Virus genome (UHGV): UHGV-0090252 | Origin: a virus | Direction: 5' to 3' (one strand) | DNA length: 64,000 nucleotides | Shown: positions 18,821-27,122 of the stretch, piece by piece | Numbering within the stretch: the stretch's first letter is position 1 | Layout of the letters: each line of letters opens with the position of its first letter | Notes under the pieces: generated by a model | The model's database searches: none | Told to the model about the DNA's origin: nothing | What the model saw: the letters and a program-made list of their open reading frames with translations, nothing else | Position numbers and translations under genes: made by a program

Positions 18821-18831
18821 AATATCTTAAG

Positions 18832-18856
18832 AGCCTCCTTAATTGGGGGCTTTTTA
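18832..18856 (+). terminator. rho-independent terminator
   Basis: GCCTCC-TTAATTG-GGGGGC hairpin followed by TTTTT. Confidence 0.6.
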
Positions 18857-18859
18857 TTT

Positions 18860-20390
18860 TTTATAAAATTTTATCGGTTGTACCAACCTCTGGGTCACCA
18901 TCATATGTGAATAAAATATCTATCCTTCTTAACAGCCTTCTTAATCTTACTCTCTATATAGTTATATAGTACTATATAGTATCTTAGTAACTATCTAGTG
19001 GTCTTAATAGCCCTCTGTATAACCCTTCTAACAAGCCCTCTAACAAGCCTTCTAAACAACCTATACAATCACCTTAACCATCTCTCTATACTCTCTTAGA
19101 AGCTCCCATACACCTCTTAATCTCTAGGTTAGCTATGACACTCTCTATAGGTGTTCACTAGGTATTACTAAGCCTCTATATAGACTGTTTTAACAAACTT
19201 AACAGGAATATCTTCACAGACCTTATCTCACAAGGTCTAACACGGTACTAACAAGGTATCTTATAAGCCTGTTTCCACCTGTATTTTTAAAAGACTGTAT
19301 AGGTAATTATTCAGAATTTTAAAATTTTTATAAAATAGGACTATCAAGTCATTTTTTTAGGGTCTTTGAAGGAACTGAAAAATATCTGTAGAAGATGTAT
19401 ATCTGCTTGGTAGCCCTTAACAGCTCCCTTACAAGTACTTTGCAGAATTTTAAAATATCATTAACAGTTTCTTAACAGTTCTCACATCTTCTTAACAACT
19501 CTTCAAAGGTCTTAACAGTTTCTTAACAGAACTAACAAGGGTTTAACAGTTTTCTAGGGATTGGTAACAATACCAATTAACAAGTGCTGAATAGGCTTTA
19601 CAGAGGCTTAACAGATGACTAACAAGAGCTAACAAGTTAATTTTTAAGAGTTATTTTGTTAAGATAATTAACAAGTCCCTAACAAGTGTTTAATCTTTTT
19701 AACAAGCTATTAACATGGTCACTACTCTTTTCTTATCGTTCCCTTTCCTTTCTTAGTGACTTCTTAAACATACCTCTTAAAAGCTCTTAAAAGCTCTTTA
19801 TAGGCTCTTTTAAGTCCCTCCCTAGTATTTACCCCTCAACTGTATGGATAGCTCTTTATAGGGCTTTACAGGAGCTTTTAAGGCTATGCCAAAGGTTCTT
19901 ACAAGGTTTTTACGTGGTCTTAACAGAGATTTAACAAGGTGCTAACAAGAATAACTATGTAGGGTTTGTTAAGAAAATGTTAAAAAAATGTTAAGGGGGC
20001 TAGCATTTACGTAACTTTTAAGCTACTTCAAAGTAACTTTATAACCCCTATAACATACTTTTTAATAGCTATCAAGGGGTTTGTTTAATCATTCACAAGA
20101 TACTAGCCAGCCTATAAGCTTTCACCCTTATAAGGTTCTTTTAAGGCTCTCAGAAGCTTTATAAAGGGCTTTTTAGGGTGGGTTAATATGATTGCTTAAG
20201 TTAGGGTGATAAGGCTGTTATAGGGCGTTATAGAGCGTTTAAGGGGTTGCCCTTCCCTTTCGGGTTATGGGCTTATATTTAAGTTGATTTGATAAGAGGT
20301 TATAGAGTAGACTATAGAGTTATTGCTTTTTAAGGTCTAGTAAGATTCTGGAAAGGAAAGGGAAAGGGTTTGTATAAGGATTCGATAGAC
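18860..20390. repeat. 1.5 kb repeat-rich non-coding region between convergent transcription units
   Basis: no ORF of 60 aa or more on either strand; dense short repeats (TATATAG/CTCTATA at 18940-19200; more than 20 copies of YTAACAR at 19400-19960; CTCTTAAAAGCTC and TTATAGRG families to 20330). Confidence 0.7.
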
Positions 20391-20392
20391 GT

Positions 20393-20417
20393 AAAAAAGC
20401 CCCTTTGAGTAGGGGCT
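20393..20417 (-). terminator. rho-independent terminator ending the small-gene array
   Basis: hairpin AGCCCC-loop-GGGGCT with AAAAAA on plus strand to the left (U-tract on the minus-strand transcript). Confidence 0.65.
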
Positions 20418-20455
20418 GTTCAGGTATCTGGGGCTAAATAGCCCCGCTGCGTCGA

Positions 20456-20704
20456 TTAGTTAGTGCCTTCTTTGTCGTAGTACAGGGAGACAATTTTTTC
20501 ACCCCAATAGTGAAAAGAATAACCCTCTTTAAGAACTTCCTGTTTTGTTTCCTCCCAGAACTCATTAGAAGGATTATAGTCGCTGATGGTCTGACTGATA
20601 AGACCTTTCACCATTTCAAAGGCGTTATCAGTGCCTGCAATGTCAAATTTAACATCCAGAGAGTAAAAACCAAATTCGTTAACAGTAGCGCGGATAGTTG
20701 CCAT
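20456..20704 (-). CDS. hypothetical small protein (82 aa)
   Basis: ATG directly preceded by conserved type A cassette with AGGAGA RBS. Confidence 0.55.
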   Translation of the reverse strand: MATIRATVNEFGFYSLDVKFDIAGTDNAFEMVKGLISQTISDYNPSNEFWEETKQEVLKEGYSFHYWGEKIVSLYYDKEGTN

Positions 20705-20772
20705 TTTTGAATCTCCTAGTTTAAGGGTTTTATTTAGTGGGGAAGGTCATTCCCTCTCCGTTGATTGACAAT
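20705..20772 (-). promoter_or_regulatory. type A intergenic cassette (hairpin plus Shine-Dalgarno)
   Basis: minus-strand consensus GTAAATTGTCAATCAACGG-GC hairpin-CACTAAATAAAACCCTTAAACTAGGAGATTCAAAA-ATG; five copies. Confidence 0.6.
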
Positions 20773-21303
20773 TTACAGATTTTTGATTGTCTCATCAATA
20801 TCTTTTTCAATATCTCTCAAAGTTTTTTCTAAGTTCTTGATATTGAAAGATAAGCCTTCTCCCAGTGTCTTAGCGTAACCATTGGGGCGCAAGTCATGCA
20901 GTTCGATTCCTTCCACTTCGAAGAGACTAACCAGCTCACCGCTTACAGTGTAAGCCATTGAAACAGTATTTACAGGGGCTTTATAGAACTTGTTTAAGAA
21001 CTTGATTGAACGCTCATAAGCCATTTTATAGCTATTTAAAAGGTTTTTAACTTGGCTATGAACGTTTTTGCACTCATCCAAGTAAATCCCTAAGAATAGC
21101 GGTAATAATTCTGCTACAGCTTGCATAAAGTGAGAGACTACAACGGTTGCAGCATTACGACGATGAACGTAATAAGCCCCGTTTTCTGATTTGGTGATGG
21201 TTGCAAAGTGTACCCCATTGCAGCGAAATTCGTAGGTATCTTTGACAGGCTTTGACATTACAGCATTTGAACGAATATAGTTGATGGCTTTGAACTTGTT
21301 CAT
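20773..21303 (-). CDS. hypothetical protein (176 aa)
   Basis: ATG preceded by type A cassette. Confidence 0.55.
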   Translation of the reverse strand: MNKFKAINYIRSNAVMSKPVKDTYEFRCNGVHFATITKSENGAYYVHRRNAATVVVSHFMQAVAELLPLFLGIYLDECKNVHSQVKNLLNSYKMAYERSIKFLNKFYKAPVNTVSMAYTVSGELVSLFEVEGIELHDLRPNGYAKTLGEGLSFNIKNLEKTLRDIEKDIDETIKNL

Positions 21304-21375
21304 TTTTGAATCTCCTAGTTTAAGGATTTTATTTAGTGGGGGAGGTCATTCCCTCCCGTTGATTAGTAATTTACT
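21304..21375 (-). promoter_or_regulatory. type A intergenic cassette
   Basis: TTTTGAATCTCCTAGTTTAAGGATTTTATTTAGTGGGGGAGGTCATTCCCTCCCGTTGATTAGTAATTTAC on plus strand. Confidence 0.6.
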
Positions 21376-21526
21376 TGTTTTGATAGCTGATTGCAAGCAA
21401 TTTTTTAAGCTTATCTATAAAGAACCTTTTAAGTGAATCCCTTTTAGATAAACCCCCCTCGAACAACATTACCAATGTCAAGGGGTATTGTCAACACTTT
21501 TTTGAAAGTTTTTTGTAAGTTGTTGA

Positions 21527-21868
21527 TTAACTGATGAATATTTTTTCAGGTTTTACATAGCTGATACGTTGGATTTTTAGCAGGTCATCCCAGATTAGTG
21601 CGGCAATATGAGCATAACCGGATTCACGTAGAAGCTTCATTGCTTTACTTCTCGTTTCAAATCGGTTTGCATAGTACTCGCTGCTCAGGGTTGTTTTCTT
21701 CCCTTCATTGTCTACATGAATAATCTGCATTACTTGGAAGGGGCTTACATCCTCGCCTTTATTCCATTGCTCAAAGTATTTTAGGCACTGCATAGGTGTC
21801 ATCTTATCACTTACTTGGGTTGACCAAGATGAATCCGGTTTATTGGTGATTACAGTTACATAAGCCAT
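21527..21868 (-). CDS. hypothetical protein (113 aa)
   Basis: ATG preceded by type A cassette. Confidence 0.55.
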   Translation of the reverse strand: MAYVTVITNKPDSSWSTQVSDKMTPMQCLKYFEQWNKGEDVSPFQVMQIIHVDNEGKKTTLSSEYYANRFETRSKAMKLLRESGYAHIAALIWDDLLKIQRISYVKPEKIFIS

Positions 21869-21945
21869 TTTTGAATCTCCTAGTTTAAGGATTTTATTTA
21901 GTGGGGGAGGTCATTCCCTCCCCGTTGATTGACAATTTACAGACT
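21869..21945 (-). promoter_or_regulatory. type A intergenic cassette
   Basis: same 70-nt consensus as 20705-20772. Confidence 0.6.
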
Positions 21946-21959
21946 TTTATCAGGCTTGT

Positions 21960-22193
21960 CTAGTCTTTTTCAATGATAATTTCATATTGACCATCAACAC
22001 TATCAAAATAAATGCCGTCGTCGTCTTCTGTCTTAAAGTAGCATTGAATATCATCACTTGCGGGGTAGTCTTGCCTTGCTATCTGGCAAACTTGAATAGC
22101 ATTTTCTTTACTTCCTGTAAACTCCTCAAGCCCTTTAAAATCGCATGAATGACCATTACAGATGGAAAGGATGAGATAAATGGTTGTAAGCAT
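21960..22193 (-). CDS. hypothetical Cys-containing small protein (77 aa)
   Basis: ORF followed upstream by terminator-like hairpin rather than a cassette. Confidence 0.5.
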   Translation of the reverse strand: MLTTIYLILSICNGHSCDFKGLEEFTGSKENAIQVCQIARQDYPASDDIQCYFKTEDDDGIYFDSVDGQYEIIIEKD

Positions 22194-22207
22194 GATTTAA
22201 GCCCTCT

Positions 22208-22227
22208 AAAAGCCCCTACAAGGGGCT
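22208..22227 (-). terminator. rho-independent terminator
   Basis: AGCCCCT-ACA-AGGGGCT hairpin with A-run on plus strand to the left. Confidence 0.55.
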
Positions 22228-22258
22228 AATTAGTGTTTATAAGGTGATTATATAGATT

Positions 22259-22801
22259 TTAGAAAAAGCTCTTTAAATCTTTCTCTGTGATGTTTCCTGT
22301 CAGTGTGTCCATGATGTCACAAAAAACCTGAATACTGTCCGACTGTTGAACGCTTTTAGCAAGAAGTTCCAGAGACTCATCAAGATAGTTTAAATTTGGG
22401 TTATCCAGTGAAGGAAGACAAAAAGGCGAAAACATCGCATTAAACTCGGTTACGTAAACCTTTTTAATCCAACTTGCATCAAAGTACTCTGTAAAACTTG
22501 CCACGCCAGACATATTATCACAAGAATAATCATCATTCAGCTCATCCTCTGGAATATCAAGTTCCAAGATAACAATATTTTGAGTTTTCATCTGGAAAGC
22601 GGCTGTAATAGTGGCATTACCTAATGCTTGCTGAATGCCTTCGGCTGTCATCTCTTCTTCATCGTCGCCATAGATTTTATTTTCTGGATACACGTAAAAA
22701 TTACCGTCCATGTCCGAACAATTCCATGCGCCTGATGGTTTATCGCCGTTATTAATCAGGTTGAGGAAGTTTTCTTGAGTAGTACCGTGAAAGCATTTCA
22801 T
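22259..22801 (-). CDS. hypothetical acidic protein (180 aa)
   Basis: ATG preceded by type B cassette. Confidence 0.55.
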   Translation of the reverse strand: MKCFHGTTQENFLNLINNGDKPSGAWNCSDMDGNFYVYPENKIYGDDEEEMTAEGIQQALGNATITAAFQMKTQNIVILELDIPEDELNDDYSCDNMSGVASFTEYFDASWIKKVYVTEFNAMFSPFCLPSLDNPNLNYLDESLELLAKSVQQSDSIQVFCDIMDTLTGNITEKDLKSFF

Positions 22802-22885
22802 TTTTGAATCTCCAGTCTAGGATTTAGTGGTAAAGCTCTTTATCTGGAGCTTAAGATATCAACTTTTAAGCCCCCTGTAAAGTAC
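22802..22885 (-). promoter_or_regulatory. type B intergenic cassette (9-bp-stem hairpin plus Shine-Dalgarno)
   Basis: minus-strand consensus AAAGTACTTTACAG-GGGGCTTAA(N11)TTAAGCCCC-AGATAAAGAGCTTTACCACTAAATCCTAAATTGGAGATTCAAAA-ATG; five copies with stem-preserving loop variants. Confidence 0.6.
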
Positions 22886-22886
22886 T

Positions 22887-23090
22887 TTATCGGTTATTTT
22901 TGACAACTTTTAAAACAGCACGGTAACCTAAGCAATAGGAATCACCGAAGAGCGACCGACCCATGAAGGAGTCCTCTGTAATATCTTTCGCCGTGACGGT
23001 TTTTTCTACGCCGTGAAAAAGAACTACATCCCCGGCTTTAATGTCTTTGATGTGTGTGGTTTCAATGGTTAAGCCGTTAATAATAGCCAT
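22887..23090 (-). CDS. hypothetical small protein (67 aa)
   Basis: ATG preceded by type A cassette. Confidence 0.5.
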   Translation of the reverse strand: MAIINGLTIETTHIKDIKAGDVVLFHGVEKTVTAKDITEDSFMGRSLFGDSYCLGYRAVLKVVKNNR

Positions 23091-23160
23091 TTTAGAATCT
23101 CCTAGTTTAAGGGCTTTATGTAGTGGGGGGGATGGTCATTCCCTCCCCGTTGATGTGTAA
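23091..23160 (-). promoter_or_regulatory. type A intergenic cassette
   Basis: variant with extended G/C hairpin and (TA)6 tract. Confidence 0.55.
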
Positions 23161-23200
23161 TTTAATATATATATATAAAAACCAGTGTCAACAAAAATTT

Positions 23201-23605
23201 TTAAAGTTCTGCATAAATTGCATCACAGATATTACGGAAGTCGTGATTTGACAAATTACGCTGCAACCAAGTGGCGAAAAAGTCAGCGATTGCATAATTA
23301 GCATCATACTCGACGGATAGCCATACTTTTACGGCGAATCTGAACATTTTTAAATCAAGCTCTTTATTCATTACCTTAGATTTGCCCAACATGTCAGCCA
23401 TTTCATATTGCGCACCGTCTAGCGTGATACCTGCTGCAACGTCAGTTAATGAGTTTTTCACGTTTTCAACGTCTAAGATAACACTTTGAATCTTCCCAAT
23501 AATGTTGTGCAATGTTTCATCAGGTGCTGATGATGTCAGAACATTAATCCGGTTAACTGTCAAACGTGCTTTTAAGATTGATAACTCACGGTTATTAATA
23601 GCCAT
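23201..23605 (-). CDS. hypothetical protein (134 aa)
   Basis: ATG preceded by type B cassette. Confidence 0.55.
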   Translation of the reverse strand: MAINNRELSILKARLTVNRINVLTSSAPDETLHNIIGKIQSVILDVENVKNSLTDVAAGITLDGAQYEMADMLGKSKVMNKELDLKMFRFAVKVWLSVEYDANYAIADFFATWLQRNLSNHDFRNICDAIYAEL

Positions 23606-23692
23606 TTTTGAATCTCCAATTTAGGATTTAGTGGTAAAGCTCTTTATCTGGGGCTTACTTTATCGAACTATAAGCCCCCTGTAAAGTACTTT
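23606..23692 (-). promoter_or_regulatory. type B intergenic cassette
   Basis: hairpin GGGGCTTA(N13)TAAGCCCC variant. Confidence 0.6.
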
Positions 23693-23965
23693 TTATACTA
23701 AATGCAGTTTTTTACCTTTTACTATGATGTAACTTGATGCGCTATTACTTTGCACATCTTGATAAATTCTACGCAAACGGCCTTCGTAGTATACTTTCCA
23801 ACTGGTTGGAATCTTTTTCCCGTATCCTGTAGCAGTTTTTTGCAGTCCTGCAAGTTGCCAATCAAGAATATGTTGTTCAGCTTGTAAATCCTCGAAGTGC
23901 ATTACGCCGTTCACATAGTGGCGCAGGGTTACGTTTAAGGTGCGACCGTTGTTAGTAGTATACAT
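23693..23965 (-). CDS. hypothetical small protein (90 aa)
   Basis: ATG preceded by type A cassette. Confidence 0.55.
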   Translation of the reverse strand: MYTTNNGRTLNVTLRHYVNGVMHFEDLQAEQHILDWQLAGLQKTATGYGKKIPTSWKVYYEGRLRRIYQDVQSNSASSYIIVKGKKLHLV

Positions 23966-24040
23966 TTTAGAATCTCCTAGTTTAAGGGCTTTATGTAGTG
24001 GGGAAGGTCATTCCCTCCCCGTTGATTAGTAATTTACTTG
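23966..24040 (-). promoter_or_regulatory. type A intergenic cassette
   Basis: same consensus. Confidence 0.6.
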
Positions 24041-24055
24041 TTTTTAAAATCAAAA

Positions 24056-24388
24056 TCAAGATAAATTTTTTCGTTTGCTCAGTTCTTGAACAATTACAGC
24101 GTAGTAGTCTTTTAAGTCACTGATATTTAAAGCATTTATCAGAGAGTTATAATCATCGACTAACTGAAAATCATCTTTAAAGATGTCGCTGATTTGATAA
24201 GTTCTCGATTGAAATCTGAAACTCATTTCTAACCGTTTTATTTGTTCATCACTTAAACGCTCCAGAAAGCTCATTACAAGGCTATTATTGACCTGTTGCG
24301 TGATTGCCTTACTTGCCAGAGTATAGGCGCTGTACGCCTTATATAGCGCCATAATAGCAATGATTGCAGTGATGCCAGTCATTAGCAT
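24056..24388 (-). CDS. hypothetical protein with N-terminal TM helix (110 aa)
   Basis: start overlaps end of upstream ORF; hydrophobic N-terminus. Confidence 0.5.
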   Translation of the reverse strand: MLMTGITAIIAIMALYKAYSAYTLASKAITQQVNNSLVMSFLERLSDEQIKRLEMSFRFQSRTYQISDIFKDDFQLVDDYNSLINALNISDLKDYYAVIVQELSKRKNLS

Positions 24389-24678
24389 GGTGATTCCTCT
24401 TTACGTGATACTTTGCCGCTTACAGTTATCTCATAAGATTCTAATAAATCACTTTTAGACTTTACAGGGCTTTTAAAAGTATTATCGTAAATATTGACTT
24501 GCAATACAGGGTTTTTATACTCCCTGCAACTATTCCATAAGCAAATCACTACACGACGGCCTTTAATTTTGCCGTGTAACCATTCCATAACATCATGATT
24601 ATTTCTTGATGTTTCAATGAAATCAATTTTATTAAGTAACTTGCTCAGATTTTCACGAACTTTATTTGATAATTTCAT
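24382..24678 (-). CDS. hypothetical small protein (98 aa)
   Basis: ATG preceded by type B cassette. Confidence 0.55.
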   Translation of the reverse strand: MKLSNKVRENLSKLLNKIDFIETSRNNHDVMEWLHGKIKGRRVVICLWNSCREYKNPVLQVNIYDNTFKSPVKSKSDLLESYEITVSGKVSRKEESPC

Positions 24679-24766
24679 TTTAGAATCTCCAATTTAGGAT
24701 TTAGTGGTAAAGCTCTTTATCTGGGGCTTACTTTATCGAACTATAAGCCCCCTGTAAAGTACTTTA
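24679..24766 (-). promoter_or_regulatory. type B intergenic cassette
   Basis: same consensus. Confidence 0.6.
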
Positions 24767-25072
24767 TTAGTTAATTTTCAGCTTTGCATGACCTCTCATT
24801 GTACGAATGGGGGAGGTTAAGGCTACGCGTCTAATATATGCCTTTTTCGTGTATATATTTGTCTTCCCGATAGTGTTTACACATGTAAAAAGGTTTATTG
24901 GTGAATTTTTTAACTTCAACTGTTTATCAACCTTCACGCCCCACCTTACAGCAGACTGTTTTCCGTTGTCAACAACTTTACCGCATAACTTTTTAGCCAT
25001 AATGCGAGCATCATCACGAGTTTTTGCAGTAATTACAACGTTTTTGATAATAGCCATTTTTAAGTTCTCCAA
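24767..25072 (-). CDS. hypothetical basic protein (101 aa)
   Basis: ATG preceded by type B cassette. Confidence 0.55.
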   Translation of the reverse strand: MENLKMAIIKNVVITAKTRDDARIMAKKLCGKVVDNGKQSAVRWGVKVDKQLKLKNSPINLFTCVNTIGKTNIYTKKAYIRRVALTSPIRTMRGHAKLKIN

Positions 25073-25143
25073 TTTAGGATTTAGTGGTAAAGCTCTTTAT
25101 CTGGGGCTTAAGATATCAACTTTTAAGCCCCCTGTAAAGTACT
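25073..25143 (-). promoter_or_regulatory. type B intergenic cassette
   Basis: same consensus. Confidence 0.6.
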
Positions 25144-25527
25144 TTATTTGTTAATTTTGAAGATAGTTACATAACCATCGCTACCAATGATTTGCGGCAC
25201 TCCAACTTTTTCTACTGAATAGCCCATATTTTCAAGATGATAAATGGCATCATCATAACCATATGCGCCACCCTGATAACGTCTCTTATTGCATTTTATC
25301 AGGTTTTTTCCACGTCCTGCAAGTGCATTCAGTATGGTTTTTTCGCTTGAGAGTGTACCATCTATCATGGTTGCCGTGTAATGGTTGATTTTATTCCCGT
25401 TGATGTCATATTTAAAATTAAATGAGTGAACAACAATTTTATTGCCTTTGAAATTCTCATCAAGTGACTTCTCCAGTACGTTGCGAAAGTTGTCTTTGTT
25501 GATGAATTTCGGTGCACGATAAGCCAT
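25144..25527 (-). CDS. hypothetical protein (127 aa)
   Basis: ATG preceded by type B-like cassette. Confidence 0.55.
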   Translation of the reverse strand: MAYRAPKFINKDNFRNVLEKSLDENFKGNKIVVHSFNFKYDINGNKINHYTATMIDGTLSSEKTILNALAGRGKNLIKCNKRRYQGGAYGYDDAIYHLENMGYSVEKVGVPQIIGSDGYVTIFKINK

Positions 25528-25618
25528 TTCTGAATCTCCTAGTTTAAGGGTTAATGTGGTAAAGCTCTTTATCTGGGGCTTAAGATATCAACTTTTAAGC
25601 CCCCTGTAAAGTACTTTA
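25528..25618 (-). promoter_or_regulatory. type B intergenic cassette (diverged 3' part)
   Basis: hairpin core conserved. Confidence 0.55.
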
Positions 25619-25825
25619 TTAGATATCGTAGTAATAAACTGCTGTCTGTCTTATGTGCTTTCTTGTATTTCTTGTAAGGTAGCAATCAGAGTTGATTGCT
25701 GTTTCTACATAGTTGCAATAGTCAGCTTCTGATATTCTAGACCATACGCCACAGATTTGCATGTAAAAACGTTTTACCTTTGTGTTAACGTTAGTTGTAA
25801 CCATCAATTCACGACCGTATAGCAT
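25619..25825 (-). CDS. hypothetical small protein (68 aa), first gene of the array
   Basis: ATG with AGGAGA RBS; upstream region is the 26060-26270 direct-repeat array. Confidence 0.5.
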   Translation of the reverse strand: MLYGRELMVTTNVNTKVKRFYMQICGVWSRISEADYCNYVETAINSDCYLTRNTRKHIRQTAVYYYDI

Positions 25826-26059
25826 TTTTAAGTTCTCCTAGTTTAAGGCTGTCGGGCTTGTCGCCCCGTCTGATGCAAATACTATAAAAACCCGTTCAAG
25901 GAGTCAATGAAAATTTTTAAAAATATTTTTGGCAAAAATGTAATGAAACGGGTGCGCGCGATTACCACAAAACAGAACTACAATCAAGAATTATTTTTCA
26001 ATCCGCTACAAATTTTTCTGTTGACTTTTATTTTCAGATGTGGTAGCCTTGTGAGAAAT

Positions 26060-26270
26060 GGCGACAGCCCCACCTACACCCACCTACCTGCACAATTCTC
26101 AAATGATTTTTCTTGCCCGACCTGATTTTTCTCTGCACGTTTTGAAAATGAAAAAGCTCTTTGGAGATTACCTGCACAGTTTGAAAATGAATTTTCTCTT
26201 TGGAGTTCAAAATTCTCTCTACAGATTTCTCTATAGAAATATACCTGCACAATTCTGAAATGAAAAAGCC
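26060..26270. repeat. array of four imperfect ~22-bp direct repeats (CCTGCACARTTYTSAAATGA) plus CCCACCTACACCCACCTACC
   Basis: copies at about 26086, 26128, 26171 and 26245 in the 500-bp non-coding gap upstream of the small-gene array. Confidence 0.6.
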
Positions 26271-26336
26271 CTCCTTACCTGAAAAATTTACCAGATAAGA
26301 AAGGCTTAGTCTATTGTGAATATCCTACGAAGTTTC

Positions 26337-27122
26337 TTAGTTCTTTGCGTCTAAGAAGGTAACTTCTGGCGAAGAGAAAACTGTCTCGATATCCTCATCA
26401 GTTCTTGCATAGATGTAGGTGTCTGCATCGCTACCAAATGTCACGGCAATTCTATGATTGCTCTTCGACAGGTGGGTAACTAGAGCGTTACTTAGAGACA
26501 TCTTTTCAACCGGAGGGTTACTTTGATGTATCTTACCTTTTCTTCGTCTGAAGAGGGTAACTGCATTATCCGTGAACACAACTACACCTGCAAAGTATTC
26601 TGGTTCACAGTAGTTCTTCCAACCTGAGCGTAACTTGTGGTACATCTCTCCTTCATAGACATACAGATAAACATCCACACTCTTCATCACCTGATTGATG
26701 ATAACTGTGACAGCTTGAGGGTCAAGTCCACCAATACCTGCACCAATCATAGGTAAACCAACTTTCTTCAACTGATTGACTTCACAGTATCTGTTAAGCT
26801 GTTTCAAAGATGACTCTAAAGCACTGTATCGTGCATCTTTACCAGTATGAAGTTGGGTGTAAAGGTTAGCTATACGACCTTGTTTTAAACGTGCTACAGA
26901 TAAATTACCTAGTAAATTTTCACAGGGTTTGTGACGAATGCCACCTGCAAACAGGTAAACTTCTGTGTCAGTATCATACACTTTTGGATAACGCTTAGAA
27001 ATAGTTGCTGCAATACCTGCACCCATGAAATTCATACAGTTGCAACCATGACCAATGATATCAAATTTACCTTTATCAAATGCTTCAAAGATATCACCTT
27101 TGATGATTTTTACAATACCCAT
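26337..27122 (-). CDS. macro-domain protein (ADP-ribose binding/processing fold) with about 100-aa C-terminal extension
   Basis: 261 aa; GDIFE, FDIIGHGCNCMNFMGAGIA and LPMIGAGIGGL match the diphosphate-binding loops of macro domains. Confidence 0.7.
   Translation of the reverse strand: MGIVKIIKGDIFEAFDKGKFDIIGHGCNCMNFMGAGIAATISKRYPKVYDTDTEVYLFAGGIRHKPCENLLGNLSVARLKQGRIANLYTQLHTGKDARYSALESSLKQLNRYCEVNQLKKVGLPMIGAGIGGLDPQAVTVIINQVMKSVDVYLYVYEGEMYHKLRSGWKNYCEPEYFAGVVVFTDNAVTLFRRRKGKIHQSNPPVEKMSLSNALVTHLSKSNHRIAVTFGSDADTYIYARTDEDIETVFSSPEVTFLDAKN

Follow-up and report, generated by a model that had tools for sequence, protein, structure and literature searches.

What function is served by two hairpin-bearing sequence cassettes that recur, five times each, in front of the small genes of a dense array in UHGV virus genome UHGV-0090252? 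This question was addressed in a window of 64,000 nucleotides (nt), the whole stretch of DNA that was analysed, which belongs to a Felixounavirus (a Felix O1-like myovirus). The recurrence of the cassettes is real and strongly non-random, the feature is judged to be functional, and the cassettes are probably composite early-expression and recombination modules of the promoter-early stem-loop (PeSL) type. All array features described below lie on the minus strand, and coordinates are those of the window.

The open reading frame (ORF) listing of the minus strand contains 13 co-oriented genes of 67-180 amino acids (aa) at 20456..25825, in agreement with a first-pass annotation of the locus, and repeat finding recovered both of the cassette families that this annotation had placed before ten of the genes: type B (family D2) as five copies of 107 nt with 71-100% identity, and type A (family D3) as five copies of 85 nt with 61-100% identity. 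In a motif scan of the whole 64 kb, GGGAATGACC, GGGGCTTA..TAAGCYCC, TAAAGAGCTTTACC and GGAGAWTC...ATG were restricted to positions 20700-25620; all matches were on the minus strand and intergenic, and the pattern is therefore far beyond chance. The type B cassettes precede the genes of 127 aa (25527-25144), 96 aa (25057-24767), 98 aa (24678-24382), 134 aa (23605-23201) and 180 aa (22801-22259), and the type A cassettes precede those of 90 aa (23965-23693), 67 aa (23090-22887), 113 aa (21868-21527), 176 aa (21303-20773) and 82 aa (20704-20456). The first gene of the array (68 aa, 25825-25619) lies behind a third cassette variant, a gene of 110 aa without a cassette (24388-24056) overlaps the preceding 98-aa gene, and a gene of 77 aa, likewise without a cassette (22193-21960), is preceded by a weak terminator-like hairpin. 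For the 96-aa gene, the true start is the ATG at 25057 and not the TTG at 25072 of the automatic ORF list.

Type A cassettes were aligned as 52 copies from the window and ten relatives (LinBro, Alf5, VpaE1, Felix O1, Z31, JK55, pinkbiff, KhF2, Citrobacter phage Mordin and Erwinia phage Tian), extended with further loci to 61 unique copies from 19 loci; an IMG/VR scan with the 14-mer GATAAAGAGCTTTA returned mostly chance matches, with approximately eight Felix-like loci and few added variants. The order of elements is a -35 box, 17 nt, a -10 box, four variable bases, ATCAAC and the hairpin. The -35 hexamer is TTGACA, TTGCAA, TTGATT, TTGACG, TTGACT or TAGACA, and the -10 hexamer is TAAATT, with TAAAGT in Mordin and TAGTAT at the first promoter of the array. 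Within this alignment, TAnnnT stands in a fixed register in 61/61 unique copies, and the -35 box (TTGnnn or TAGACA) is exactly 17 nt upstream in 57/61, the exceptions being a (TA)n expansion that gives an alternative -10. The stop codon of the previous gene often falls within the -10 (TAA of TAAATT) or the -35 (TAG of TAGACA), and inspection of the sequences revealed A-tracts (GAAAAAG, TTAAAAAATT, TTTAAAAATTTTT) immediately before the -35 of all five A copies of the window and of the first promoter. A promoter consensus scan of the window detected all five B sites and two A sites, with 43 promoter-like sites in the window vs. 26.6±5.1 in shuffles. The cassette size of 70-90 nt given in the first-pass annotation was too small in this respect, as type A reaches upstream through both boxes to about 97-104 nt, the -35/-10 region overlapping the 3' end or the stop codon of the preceding gene.

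The five type A copies of the window display this plan with local variation. Cassette A1 (23963..24059) carries TTGATT (24059-24054), a 17-nt spacer, TAAATT (24036-24031), the hairpin GGGGAGGGAATGACCTTCCCC (24020-24000), a Shine-Dalgarno (SD) sequence at 23977-23974 and ATG at 23965. In cassette A2 (23088..23191), TTGACA (23191-23186) and TAAATT (23164-23159) are separated by 21 nt vs. 17 nt in Felix O1, owing to a (TA)n microsatellite expansion in the spacer that generates an alternative promoter, TTGACA-16-TATATT; its hairpin lies at 23148-23125, its SD at 23102-23099 and its ATG at 23090. The length of this (TA)n tract varies among relatives (Alf5, pinkbiff), a possible expression-tuning polymorphism. 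Cassette A3 (21866..21962) uses TAGACA (21962-21957), in which TAG doubles as the upstream gene's stop codon, followed after 17 nt by TAAATT (21939-21934), a hairpin at 21923-21903 (-15.9 kcal/mol, z -4.0), an SD at 21880-21877 and ATG at 21868. Cassette A4 (21301..21396) combines TTGCAA (21396-21391), 17 nt, TAAATT (21373-21368), a hairpin (21357-21338), an SD (21315-21312) and ATG (21303), whereas in cassette A5 (20702..20798) the TTGATG box (20798-20793) is located within the upstream gene, the TAA of TAAATT (20775-20770, again after 17 nt) is the upstream stop codon, and a weakened hairpin (20759-20739, -8.3 kcal/mol) precedes the SD at 20716-20713 and the ATG at 20704. The first promoter cassette of the array (25826..25907) follows a similar order, with TTGACT (25907-25902), a 17-nt spacer, TAGTAT (25884-25879), TTGCATCAGAC after the -10, a weak hairpin (25866-25854), the leader CCTTAAACTAGGAG, an SD at 25838-25835 and ATG at 25825; the AT-rich tract AAAAATATTTTTAAAAATTTT lies directly upstream, and the cassette is kept in nine relatives.

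The type A hairpin has a G/C stem of 7-8 bp and a loop of 5-7 nt, and it starts approximately 10 nt after the -10. Predicted folding energies range from -8 to -16 kcal/mol in the window and from -7 to -17 kcal/mol over all 42 unique variants, every one of which folds; the stem sequences differ (GGGGAGG/CCTYCCCC, GGGAGGCGATAACCTCCCC, GGGGAGGGAAACTTCCCC, GGGGTAAGCAAGCCCC) while the position is constant. If transcription starts 7±1 nt beyond the -10, the RNA would have 2-4 unpaired bases ahead of the hairpin. The 5'-terminal stem-loop of the ompA 5' untranslated region is said, in work by Emory, Bouvet and Belasco from 1992, to protect E. coli mRNA from RNase E, and the type A hairpin, about 2-4 nt away from the predicted 5' end, has the geometry that a stabiliser of this kind requires. 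A leader peptide was considered for the same interval, where GGAGG..ATGACCTTCCCCACTAAATAA could encode M-T-F-P-T-K-stop in a frame that one copy keeps despite a 3-nt insertion; this candidate was rejected because the ATG is lost in many relatives (GATAACC, AATAGCC, GGGAAAC) and the SD-like GGAGG is only 2 nt away.

Could the hairpins be plain intrinsic terminators that merely end the transcript of each gene? The GenBank record of KhF2 marks type A hairpins as "Rho-independent terminator", although on the opposite strand, where there are no genes to terminate, and PeSL stem-loops were reported to cut downstream lacZ expression as much as rrnB T1 (PMC2839356). On the gene strand, however, the hairpins are followed by no T/U run (the A tail is ACTAAATAAAA and the B tail AGATAAAGAG), and all ten lack the combination of a G+C-rich hairpin with an immediate U tract that defines an intrinsic terminator. 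A terminator scan reported 0/10 of the cassette hairpins while detecting the true terminators at both ends of the array, which makes simple termination a highly unlikely account.

In type B, the promoter is situated inside the hairpin. The alignment comprised 35 unique copies, and promoter boxes were counted on 33 unique cores from three genera: TTTACA, 17 nt and TAnnnT are present in 33/33 cores and an extended TGn in 23/33. Eleven different hexamers occupy the -10 (among them TATCTT, TAAAGT, TAAGAT, TAGTAT and TAATCT), while the unpaired C15 and A16, in TTTACA, and the loop bases T34 and A35 are invariant and the rest of the loop is variable. A variant shorter by 1 nt lacks a base after the -10 and keeps the spacer length. 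This conservation places the -35 in the 5' arm of the hairpin and the -10 across the loop and the first part of the 3' arm; the segment upstream of the -35 consists of ATAAAGTAC and coding sequence.

The 9-bp stem described for type B in the first-pass annotation is present, yet it is merely the tip of a ~59-nt hairpin with three helices, which starts at the upstream stop codon. The full fold contains a lower stem UAAAGU/GCUUUA, which includes the upstream stop codon, an A×A mismatch, a middle stem CUUUA/UAAAG, a 3×3 internal loop with the invariant bases CA/AGA, and an upper stem GGGGCUUAA/UUAAGCCCC, for a total of ~20 bp with a terminal loop of 11-13 nt. For the window copies, the predicted folding energy is -19 to -22 kcal/mol (z -3.3 to -3.9), and RNAalifold independently returned the same three helices; a search of Rfam gave no family at gathering score, and two sub-threshold hits were chance matches (mir-22 with 22.9 bits vs. 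a cut-off of 48, and a CRISPR repeat). With this model, 95.2% of alignment cells are paired vs. 54-56% when the partners are slid by one column, and neither the observed pairing nor the covariation score was reached by any shuffle (0/500). Compensatory GC→UA changes occur at pairs 7-57 (four sequences) and 20-44 (three sequences, from Erwinia phage). One-sided changes are almost all to G·U in the sense strand (pair 22-42, CG/UG 17:17; pair 5-59, AU→GU in six; pair 8-56, U·G in 32/35), and since a sense-strand G·U is an A×C mismatch on the opposite strand, these changes fit the folded sense strand only. Combined, the results suggest that the type B hairpin is likely, although not proven, to be under selection at the RNA level (or at a single-strand level).

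The same substitutions bear on a reading in which DNA operators are formed by the inverted repeat GGGGCTTAA-N11-TTAAGCCCC together with the TAAAGnnCTTTA palindromes on its flanks, and are bound by a dimeric phage repressor of early promoters or by a recombination protein, with RNA structure irrelevant. The repeat extends over both the spacer and the -10, a place at which a bound repressor would keep RNA polymerase out; CTTTACAG-type words are dense, at a spacing of about 10-11 bp, in the non-coding region at 18.8-20.4 kb, suggesting a protein that reads them; and the timing of Felix O1 transcription is described as unknown (PMC3185647). Nevertheless, the U·G pairs at 8-56 (32/35) and 22-42 (17/35) would break a DNA palindrome, and the stems change via compensatory GC→UA substitutions. 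In addition, a variant with AGATTTCTTTA...TAAAGAGATTT is non-palindromic in either half, yet its left half pairs with its right; a model with two palindromic operators flanking type B (TAAAGnnCTTTA) was rejected on this basis. Operator function as the explanation of the cassettes is thus regarded as very improbable.

The five B copies of the window have the following elements. Cassette B1 (25525..25618) has TTTACA at 25610-25605, TATCTT with TGn at 25587-25582, the long hairpin at 25618-25560, an SD at 25539-25536 and ATG at 25527, and its leader is the "A-type" variant CCTTAAACTAGGAG, which makes it a hybrid cassette. Cassette B2 (25055..25146) has its -35 at 25138-25133, TATCTT at 25115-25110, the long hairpin at 25146-25088 (-21.9 kcal/mol, z -3.9), and an SD at 25070-25067 with 9-nt spacing to the ATG at 25057. 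The corresponding elements of cassette B3 (24676..24766) are a -35 at 24758-24753, TAAAGT at 24735-24730, a long hairpin at 24766-24708 (-22.4 kcal/mol, z -3.9), an SD at 24690-24687 and ATG at 24678. Cassette B4 (23603..23692) carries TTTACA at 23685-23680, TAAAGT at 23662-23657, an upper stem at 23678-23650, GGAG at 23617-23614 and ATG at 23605. Finally, cassette B5 (22799..22889) has a -35 at 22881-22876, TATCTT at 22858-22853, a long hairpin with a G·U pair (GCTCC) at 22889-22831 (-18.9 kcal/mol, z -3.3), an SD at 22813-22810 and ATG at 22801.

The size and shape of the B hairpin invite comparison with phage T7, in whose early region the RNase III signals (R0.3-R1.3) are imperfect hairpins of ~60 nt with an internal loop, located between consecutive early genes read by the host polymerase. 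Type B, according to prediction and covariation, is likewise an imperfect double-stranded RNA of ~20 bp with internal loops, and the upstream mRNA would keep a 3' hairpin after cleavage. An alternative is a T7-like array for RNA processing alone, in which one long transcript from the first promoter would be cut at the hairpins (by RNase III at B and by RNase E nearby) into stable monocistronic mRNAs, the promoter hexamers being incidental. Consistent with such an array are the ~59-nt duplex with its two internal loops, the invariant CA/AGA bases, the promoter-less B-like hairpin with AGAUA that is conserved at the array end, and the bracketing of the array by a strong first promoter and a strong final terminator. 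In contrast to type B, where loop and internal-loop conservation fits promoter hexamers and cleavage is a prediction, the T7 sites are not promoters. RNase III needs no specific loop, whereas T34/A35 and C15/A16 are invariant at the -10 and -35 places with a constant spacing of 17 nt across the 33 cores, and promoters of TTGACA type are found in 57/61 type A copies. Processing as the sole function is accordingly judged unlikely; as a function added to promoters it does not exclude them, and in that form it is plausible, if tentative.

Downstream of the hairpins, types A and B have a common leader module, CCACTAAAT..CCT(T)AAA(C)T(A)GGAGATTC. There are two variants of this module, and each is found with either hairpin type. 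The variants (e.g., 20705-20735 and 21869-21900) differ by two single-base deletions, and both keep a tiny hairpin over the SD (UCCU-UAAACU-AGGA vs. UCC-UAAAUU-GGA, about -3 kcal/mol) that could be a weak translational tuning element or a coincidence. The SD and its spacing were previously described as identical in all copies, which holds for nine of the ten cassettes (GGAGATTC(N4)ATG, with a gap of 8 nt between GGAG and ATG); the copy of the 96-aa gene deviates, with GGAGAACTTAAAAATG and a gap of 9 nt.

The array was also compared with related genomes. The 5.9 kb around the array match 253 phage records, nearly all Felix O1-like, the top matches being LinBro, at 91% over the full query (100%), and Alf5, at 95% over 87% of it. 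By BLAST, type B was found at 1418 places in 288 phage records and type A at 1300 places in 242 records, nearly all from Ounavirinae, the exceptions being two single records that carry other names, with type B reaching Erwinia phages. The B cassettes are 78-81% identical to those of Mordin, vs. 58-79% for the genes, and 68-70% identical to those of Erwinia phage Tian, vs. 56-61% for the genes; the cassettes are better conserved than the surrounding genes, a pattern indicative of purifying selection on these sequences. The Erwinia array has additional cassette types of its own on the same plan, with a different common leader.

ORF clustering of eleven arrays revealed a constant backbone order with presence or absence of the units f19+f14, f20, f15-f6-f10, f24 and f29, and gene content among relatives differs exactly at cassette borders. 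In each of four gene gains or losses inspected at the nucleotide level, the junction cassette was chimeric: its 5' part is that of the cassette after the upstream gene, its 3' part is that of the cassette before the downstream gene, and the crossover lies inside the common hairpin and leader block. At orthologous positions, hairpin-loop and leader/SD variants differ between genomes, and this shuffling of sequence variants suggests that cassettes continue to be exchanged. Along the array, conserved blocks of 25-60 nt recur every 300-600 bp.

These gains and losses might instead reflect dedicated or selfish mobile cassettes, whose hairpins would be recognised by a structure-specific recombinase (as in integron attC sites) that moves units of gene plus hairpin, with expression signals secondary. 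Whole units of gene plus cassette are gained and lost with junctions inside the hairpin block, the ~60-nt hairpin of type B is imperfect, bulged and variable in its terminal loop, and mini-circles of PeSLs were detected in RB49/phi1 (PMC2839356). The crossovers, however, lie where the identical blocks are longest, the outcome expected from simple homologous recombination; the borders of B are TAAAGTAC ... GCTTTAC, without attC core sites (RYYYAAC / GTTRRRY); PHROG and Pfam assignment of the array proteins gave no recombinase family; and the promoter features are conserved. A dedicated mobility system is consequently considered extremely doubtful.

The known system that most resembles the present cassettes was defined in the T4-like phages RB49/phi1, T4/PST and KVP40/nt-1 (Arbiol 2010 PMC2839356; Comeau 2014 PMC4122927). 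A PeSL extends from stop codon to ATG and contains an AT-rich tract, a sigma70 promoter, a stem-loop of G-run and C-run with G-T pairs, and an SD, the stem-loop being located in the interval from -35 to -10, across the -10, or immediately ahead of the start site (PMC2839356). PeSLs are clustered in hyperplastic regions of ORFans, where they mediate modular shuffling, and both promoter and terminator activity have been measured (PMC2839356; PMC4122927). Similarly, the cassettes in the window fill the whole intergenic space between the upstream stop codon and the downstream SD and ATG, and they carry sigma70-like -35 and -10 boxes with 17-nt spacing, those of type B fitting by sequence the T4/PST PeSL and early-promoter consensus TTTACW-N17-TAYWAT (PMC4122927). 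The stable stem-loop of B covers the spacer and the -10, and that of A, which begins 10 nt after the -10, corresponds to the placement immediately ahead of the start site; the cassettes occupy a variable region of small genes of unassigned function with indels bounded by the elements and chimeric junctions.

The differences are equally clear. The lineage here is Ounavirinae (Felixounavirus, Mooglevirus, Kolesnikvirus) rather than T4-like, there is no detectable sequence similarity to PeSLs, and BLAST matches are almost only to Ounavirinae. In B, the stem-loop is lengthened into a ~59-nt hairpin of three helices with covariation, and the array is unusually regular, with two alternating types and a common leader. 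Promoter and terminator activity and mini-circles are experimental results for PeSLs, whereas the present cassettes are known from sequence. Accordingly, the cassettes would represent a device of the PeSL kind in a new phage subfamily, related by design and not by descent. Another type of hairpin promoter, that of N4, has a stem of 5-7 bp and a 3-nt loop and is read by a virion RNA polymerase, while the loops here measure 5-7 nt in type A and 11-13 nt in type B; an RNA polymerase gene is absent from Felix O1 (PMC3185647).

A literature search found no description of PeSL-type cassettes in Ounavirinae. The genome paper of Felix O1 lists "direct repeats" as two copies each, without function and not among the predicted promoters (Whichard 2010, PMC3185647): the 57-bp repeat CTTTACATGGGGCTTAAAAG...CTTTACCACT corresponds to type B here, and the 39-bp repeat TTGACACTGG...ACACATCAAC to the promoter part of type A. 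Relative to the first-pass annotation, the promoters, the location of the B promoter inside a hairpin, the role as recombination linkers and the match to the PeSL design are additions, and its proposal of a modular early-gene array with individual expression signals gains support from the conserved promoters, the hairpins (with covariation for B), the SDs, the timing by reverse transcription PCR (RT-PCR) described below, and the gene-content borders.

A mechanism can be proposed in which promoter activity, start sites, RNA cleavage and the roles of the hairpins are deduced from sequence. Unmodified host sigma70 RNA polymerase would read each cassette promoter right after infection, such that each small gene or gene pair would form its own transcription unit. 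For type A, transcription would start 2-4 nt before the stable G/C hairpin, yielding an mRNA with a 5'-terminal stem-loop whose geometry may protect it from 5'-end-dependent attack by RNase E. For type B, the predicted start is the A of CCCC/AGATAAAG, directly 3' of the hairpin, and the RNA from there to the ATG is predicted to be unstructured (-2.7 kcal/mol, z +0.5). Because the hairpin precedes the element's own predicted start, it would exist solely in RNA arriving from upstream. Thus, the own transcripts of type B would begin at CCCC/AGAUAAAG with an unstructured, AU-rich leader, and the hairpin would form in read-through RNA, where it may act as an attenuator, as a processing site and/or as a 3' protector of the upstream message. 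Processing could involve an RNase III-like substrate of ~20 bp or cleavage by RNase E at AGAUA; it is plausible from the sequence that AGAUA, which resembles RNase E sites, and the hairpin, as an RNase III substrate, serve in this way. In both types, an open leader with GGAG 8 nt before the ATG would give uniformly strong translation. As the comparison of relatives shows, the conserved blocks additionally serve as linkers for homologous recombination, by which units of gene plus cassette are deleted, inserted or exchanged among related phages with the expression of neighbours intact.

A speculative and quite improbable extension is that type B is dual-coded, as a promoter in DNA and as a processing hairpin in RNA, cut at the conserved AGA internal loop to give a 5' end near-identical to that from the promoter's own start, and that the hairpins additionally serve as handles for structure-specific recombination that excises mini-circles of gene plus cassette. 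If true, dual coding would provide the same monocistronic mRNA for each gene whatever its transcriptional origin, and the recombination handles would make the array the phage counterpart of an integron.

Several observations weigh against the interpretation of the cassettes as PeSL-type modules. The type A hexamers are moderate matches to consensus (4/6 for TAAATT and for several -35 boxes). The hairpins, without a U tract, fail the canonical pattern of intrinsic terminators, and any attenuation would therefore be non-canonical. The covariation in type B amounts to a few independent events among related sequences, with imperfect controls, and fold energies are weakly asymmetric, the sense strand being the more stable in 30/42 variants of both types while the commonest type B variant folds better as antisense; as a test of strand, the counts of pair types given above tell more. 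The words CTTTACAG and GCTTTACC of the B cassettes belong to a family, CTWWAHAG, that is strongly enriched in the nearby non-coding region, so part of their conservation could reflect a DNA-binding protein. With regard to expression, the Felix O1 homologues 14, 17, 19 and 23 peak at 25 min by end-point RT-PCR (PMC3185647), and a literature search found no mapping of transcript ends for any Felix O1-like phage.

Early expression in Felix O1 was detected by RT-PCR for the array genes 16, 20, 21 and 22, with maximal levels at 5 min after infection, while the passage of transcription through its many terminators, any promoters beyond those terminators, and the temporal control were stated to be unknown (PMC3185647). 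The first-pass annotation recognised no functions in the array, and this was borne out, as each of the 13 proteins belongs to a PHROG family of "unknown function" and has no Pfam match. A sequence search of the PDB gave no match for the 180-aa or the 176-aa protein, and a single-sequence AlphaFold model of the 180-aa protein, whose N-terminus is MKCFHGT, was too poor to use (predicted local distance difference test score, pLDDT, of 38). In Bas63, analysed by PhageMaP, the corresponding region holds small genes of mixed essentiality, and one of them, g107, resembles the NAD-binding domain of an RNA 2'-phosphotransferase and was more important in strain S17-1 (PMC11482910). If the gene numbers follow the locus tags, g107 would be the homologue of the 180-aa gene, a match made by locus-tag number alone. 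A gene with a macro domain (Pfam Macro; ADP-ribose-binding) at 26337-27122 lies directly upstream of the array that holds the 180-aa gene.

The array is delimited on both sides. It lies downstream of the macro-domain gene (27122-26337), which is followed by a strong intrinsic terminator with a 17-bp stem and a T run (26266..26307) that equals t13 of Felix O1 (PMC3185647); this terminator ends the upstream operon and sets the array apart. Between it and the first array promoter, at 26030-26300, there are four copies of TTCATTTTCAnAAnTGTGCAGGTA; Erwinia phage Tian (L010, 3552-4010) has an equivalent four-fold repeat (..CATTTTCAATTTGTGCATAG..) in the same relative place, so the repeat is conserved across genera. 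At the other end (20392..20441), a promoter-less B-like hairpin GGGGCTATTTAGCCCC and AGATACC precede the canonical intrinsic terminator AGCCCCTACTCAAAGGGGCTTTTTT, and this arrangement of B-like upper stem, AGATACC and true terminator is kept in nine relatives. The presence of a B-like hairpin without a promoter hints at a hairpin role independent of the promoter.

Beyond the array end, 1.6 kb (18821-20455) between a plus-strand gene block and the array contain no ORF of at least 50 aa on either strand. This region carries the degenerate words CTTAACAG, CTAACAAG, CTTTATAG, CTTTACAG and CTTAAAAG about 10-11 bp apart, and CTWWAHAG has 30 matches within it and 148 in the window vs. about 41 in mononucleotide shuffles. 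The words may possibly be protein-binding sites, an origin or genome ends; the terminal repeat of UAB_Phi87 is 608 bp. A separate promoter-like motif is present in three copies on the minus strand (10792-10862, 21423-21494 and 56698-56750), each with two TTGACA boxes 12-13 nt apart, a (TG)TAnnnT -10, and the exact word CTTAAAAGGTT 35-45 nt further on (three matches vs. 0.1 expected). The second copy, which closely precedes a type A cassette, is located in the 223-nt gap that separates the gene 21868-21527 from the gene 21303-20773, and a similar motif follows the array in Erwinia phage Tian. Elsewhere in the window, the minus strand at 3700-8600 appears to hold a cluster of transfer RNA genes, expected for Felix O1-like phages, as judged from repeat families with T-arm words of the GGATTCGAACC type, and three to four tandem coding repeats of about 250 nt with 63-70% identity (GATGCAGGTTCATACACTTGTGTTGT...) at 12864-13700 look like repeated protein domains in a plus-strand gene.

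In typing, biocontrol and therapy for Salmonella and E. coli, wide use is made of Felix O1-like phages, whose transcription programme is nevertheless undescribed, and current annotations leave the cassette sites unlabelled or mark them as terminators on the opposite strand. The cassettes provide about a dozen concrete candidate early promoters and transcript boundaries for these phages, and they offer an explanation for the differences in gene content among roughly 250 sequenced relatives. For engineering, the cassette borders would be natural, expression-neutral places for the insertion or deletion of genes. Overall, the PeSL design would be a recurrent solution by which large virulent phages run and reshuffle accessory early genes, and not a peculiarity of T4-like phages.

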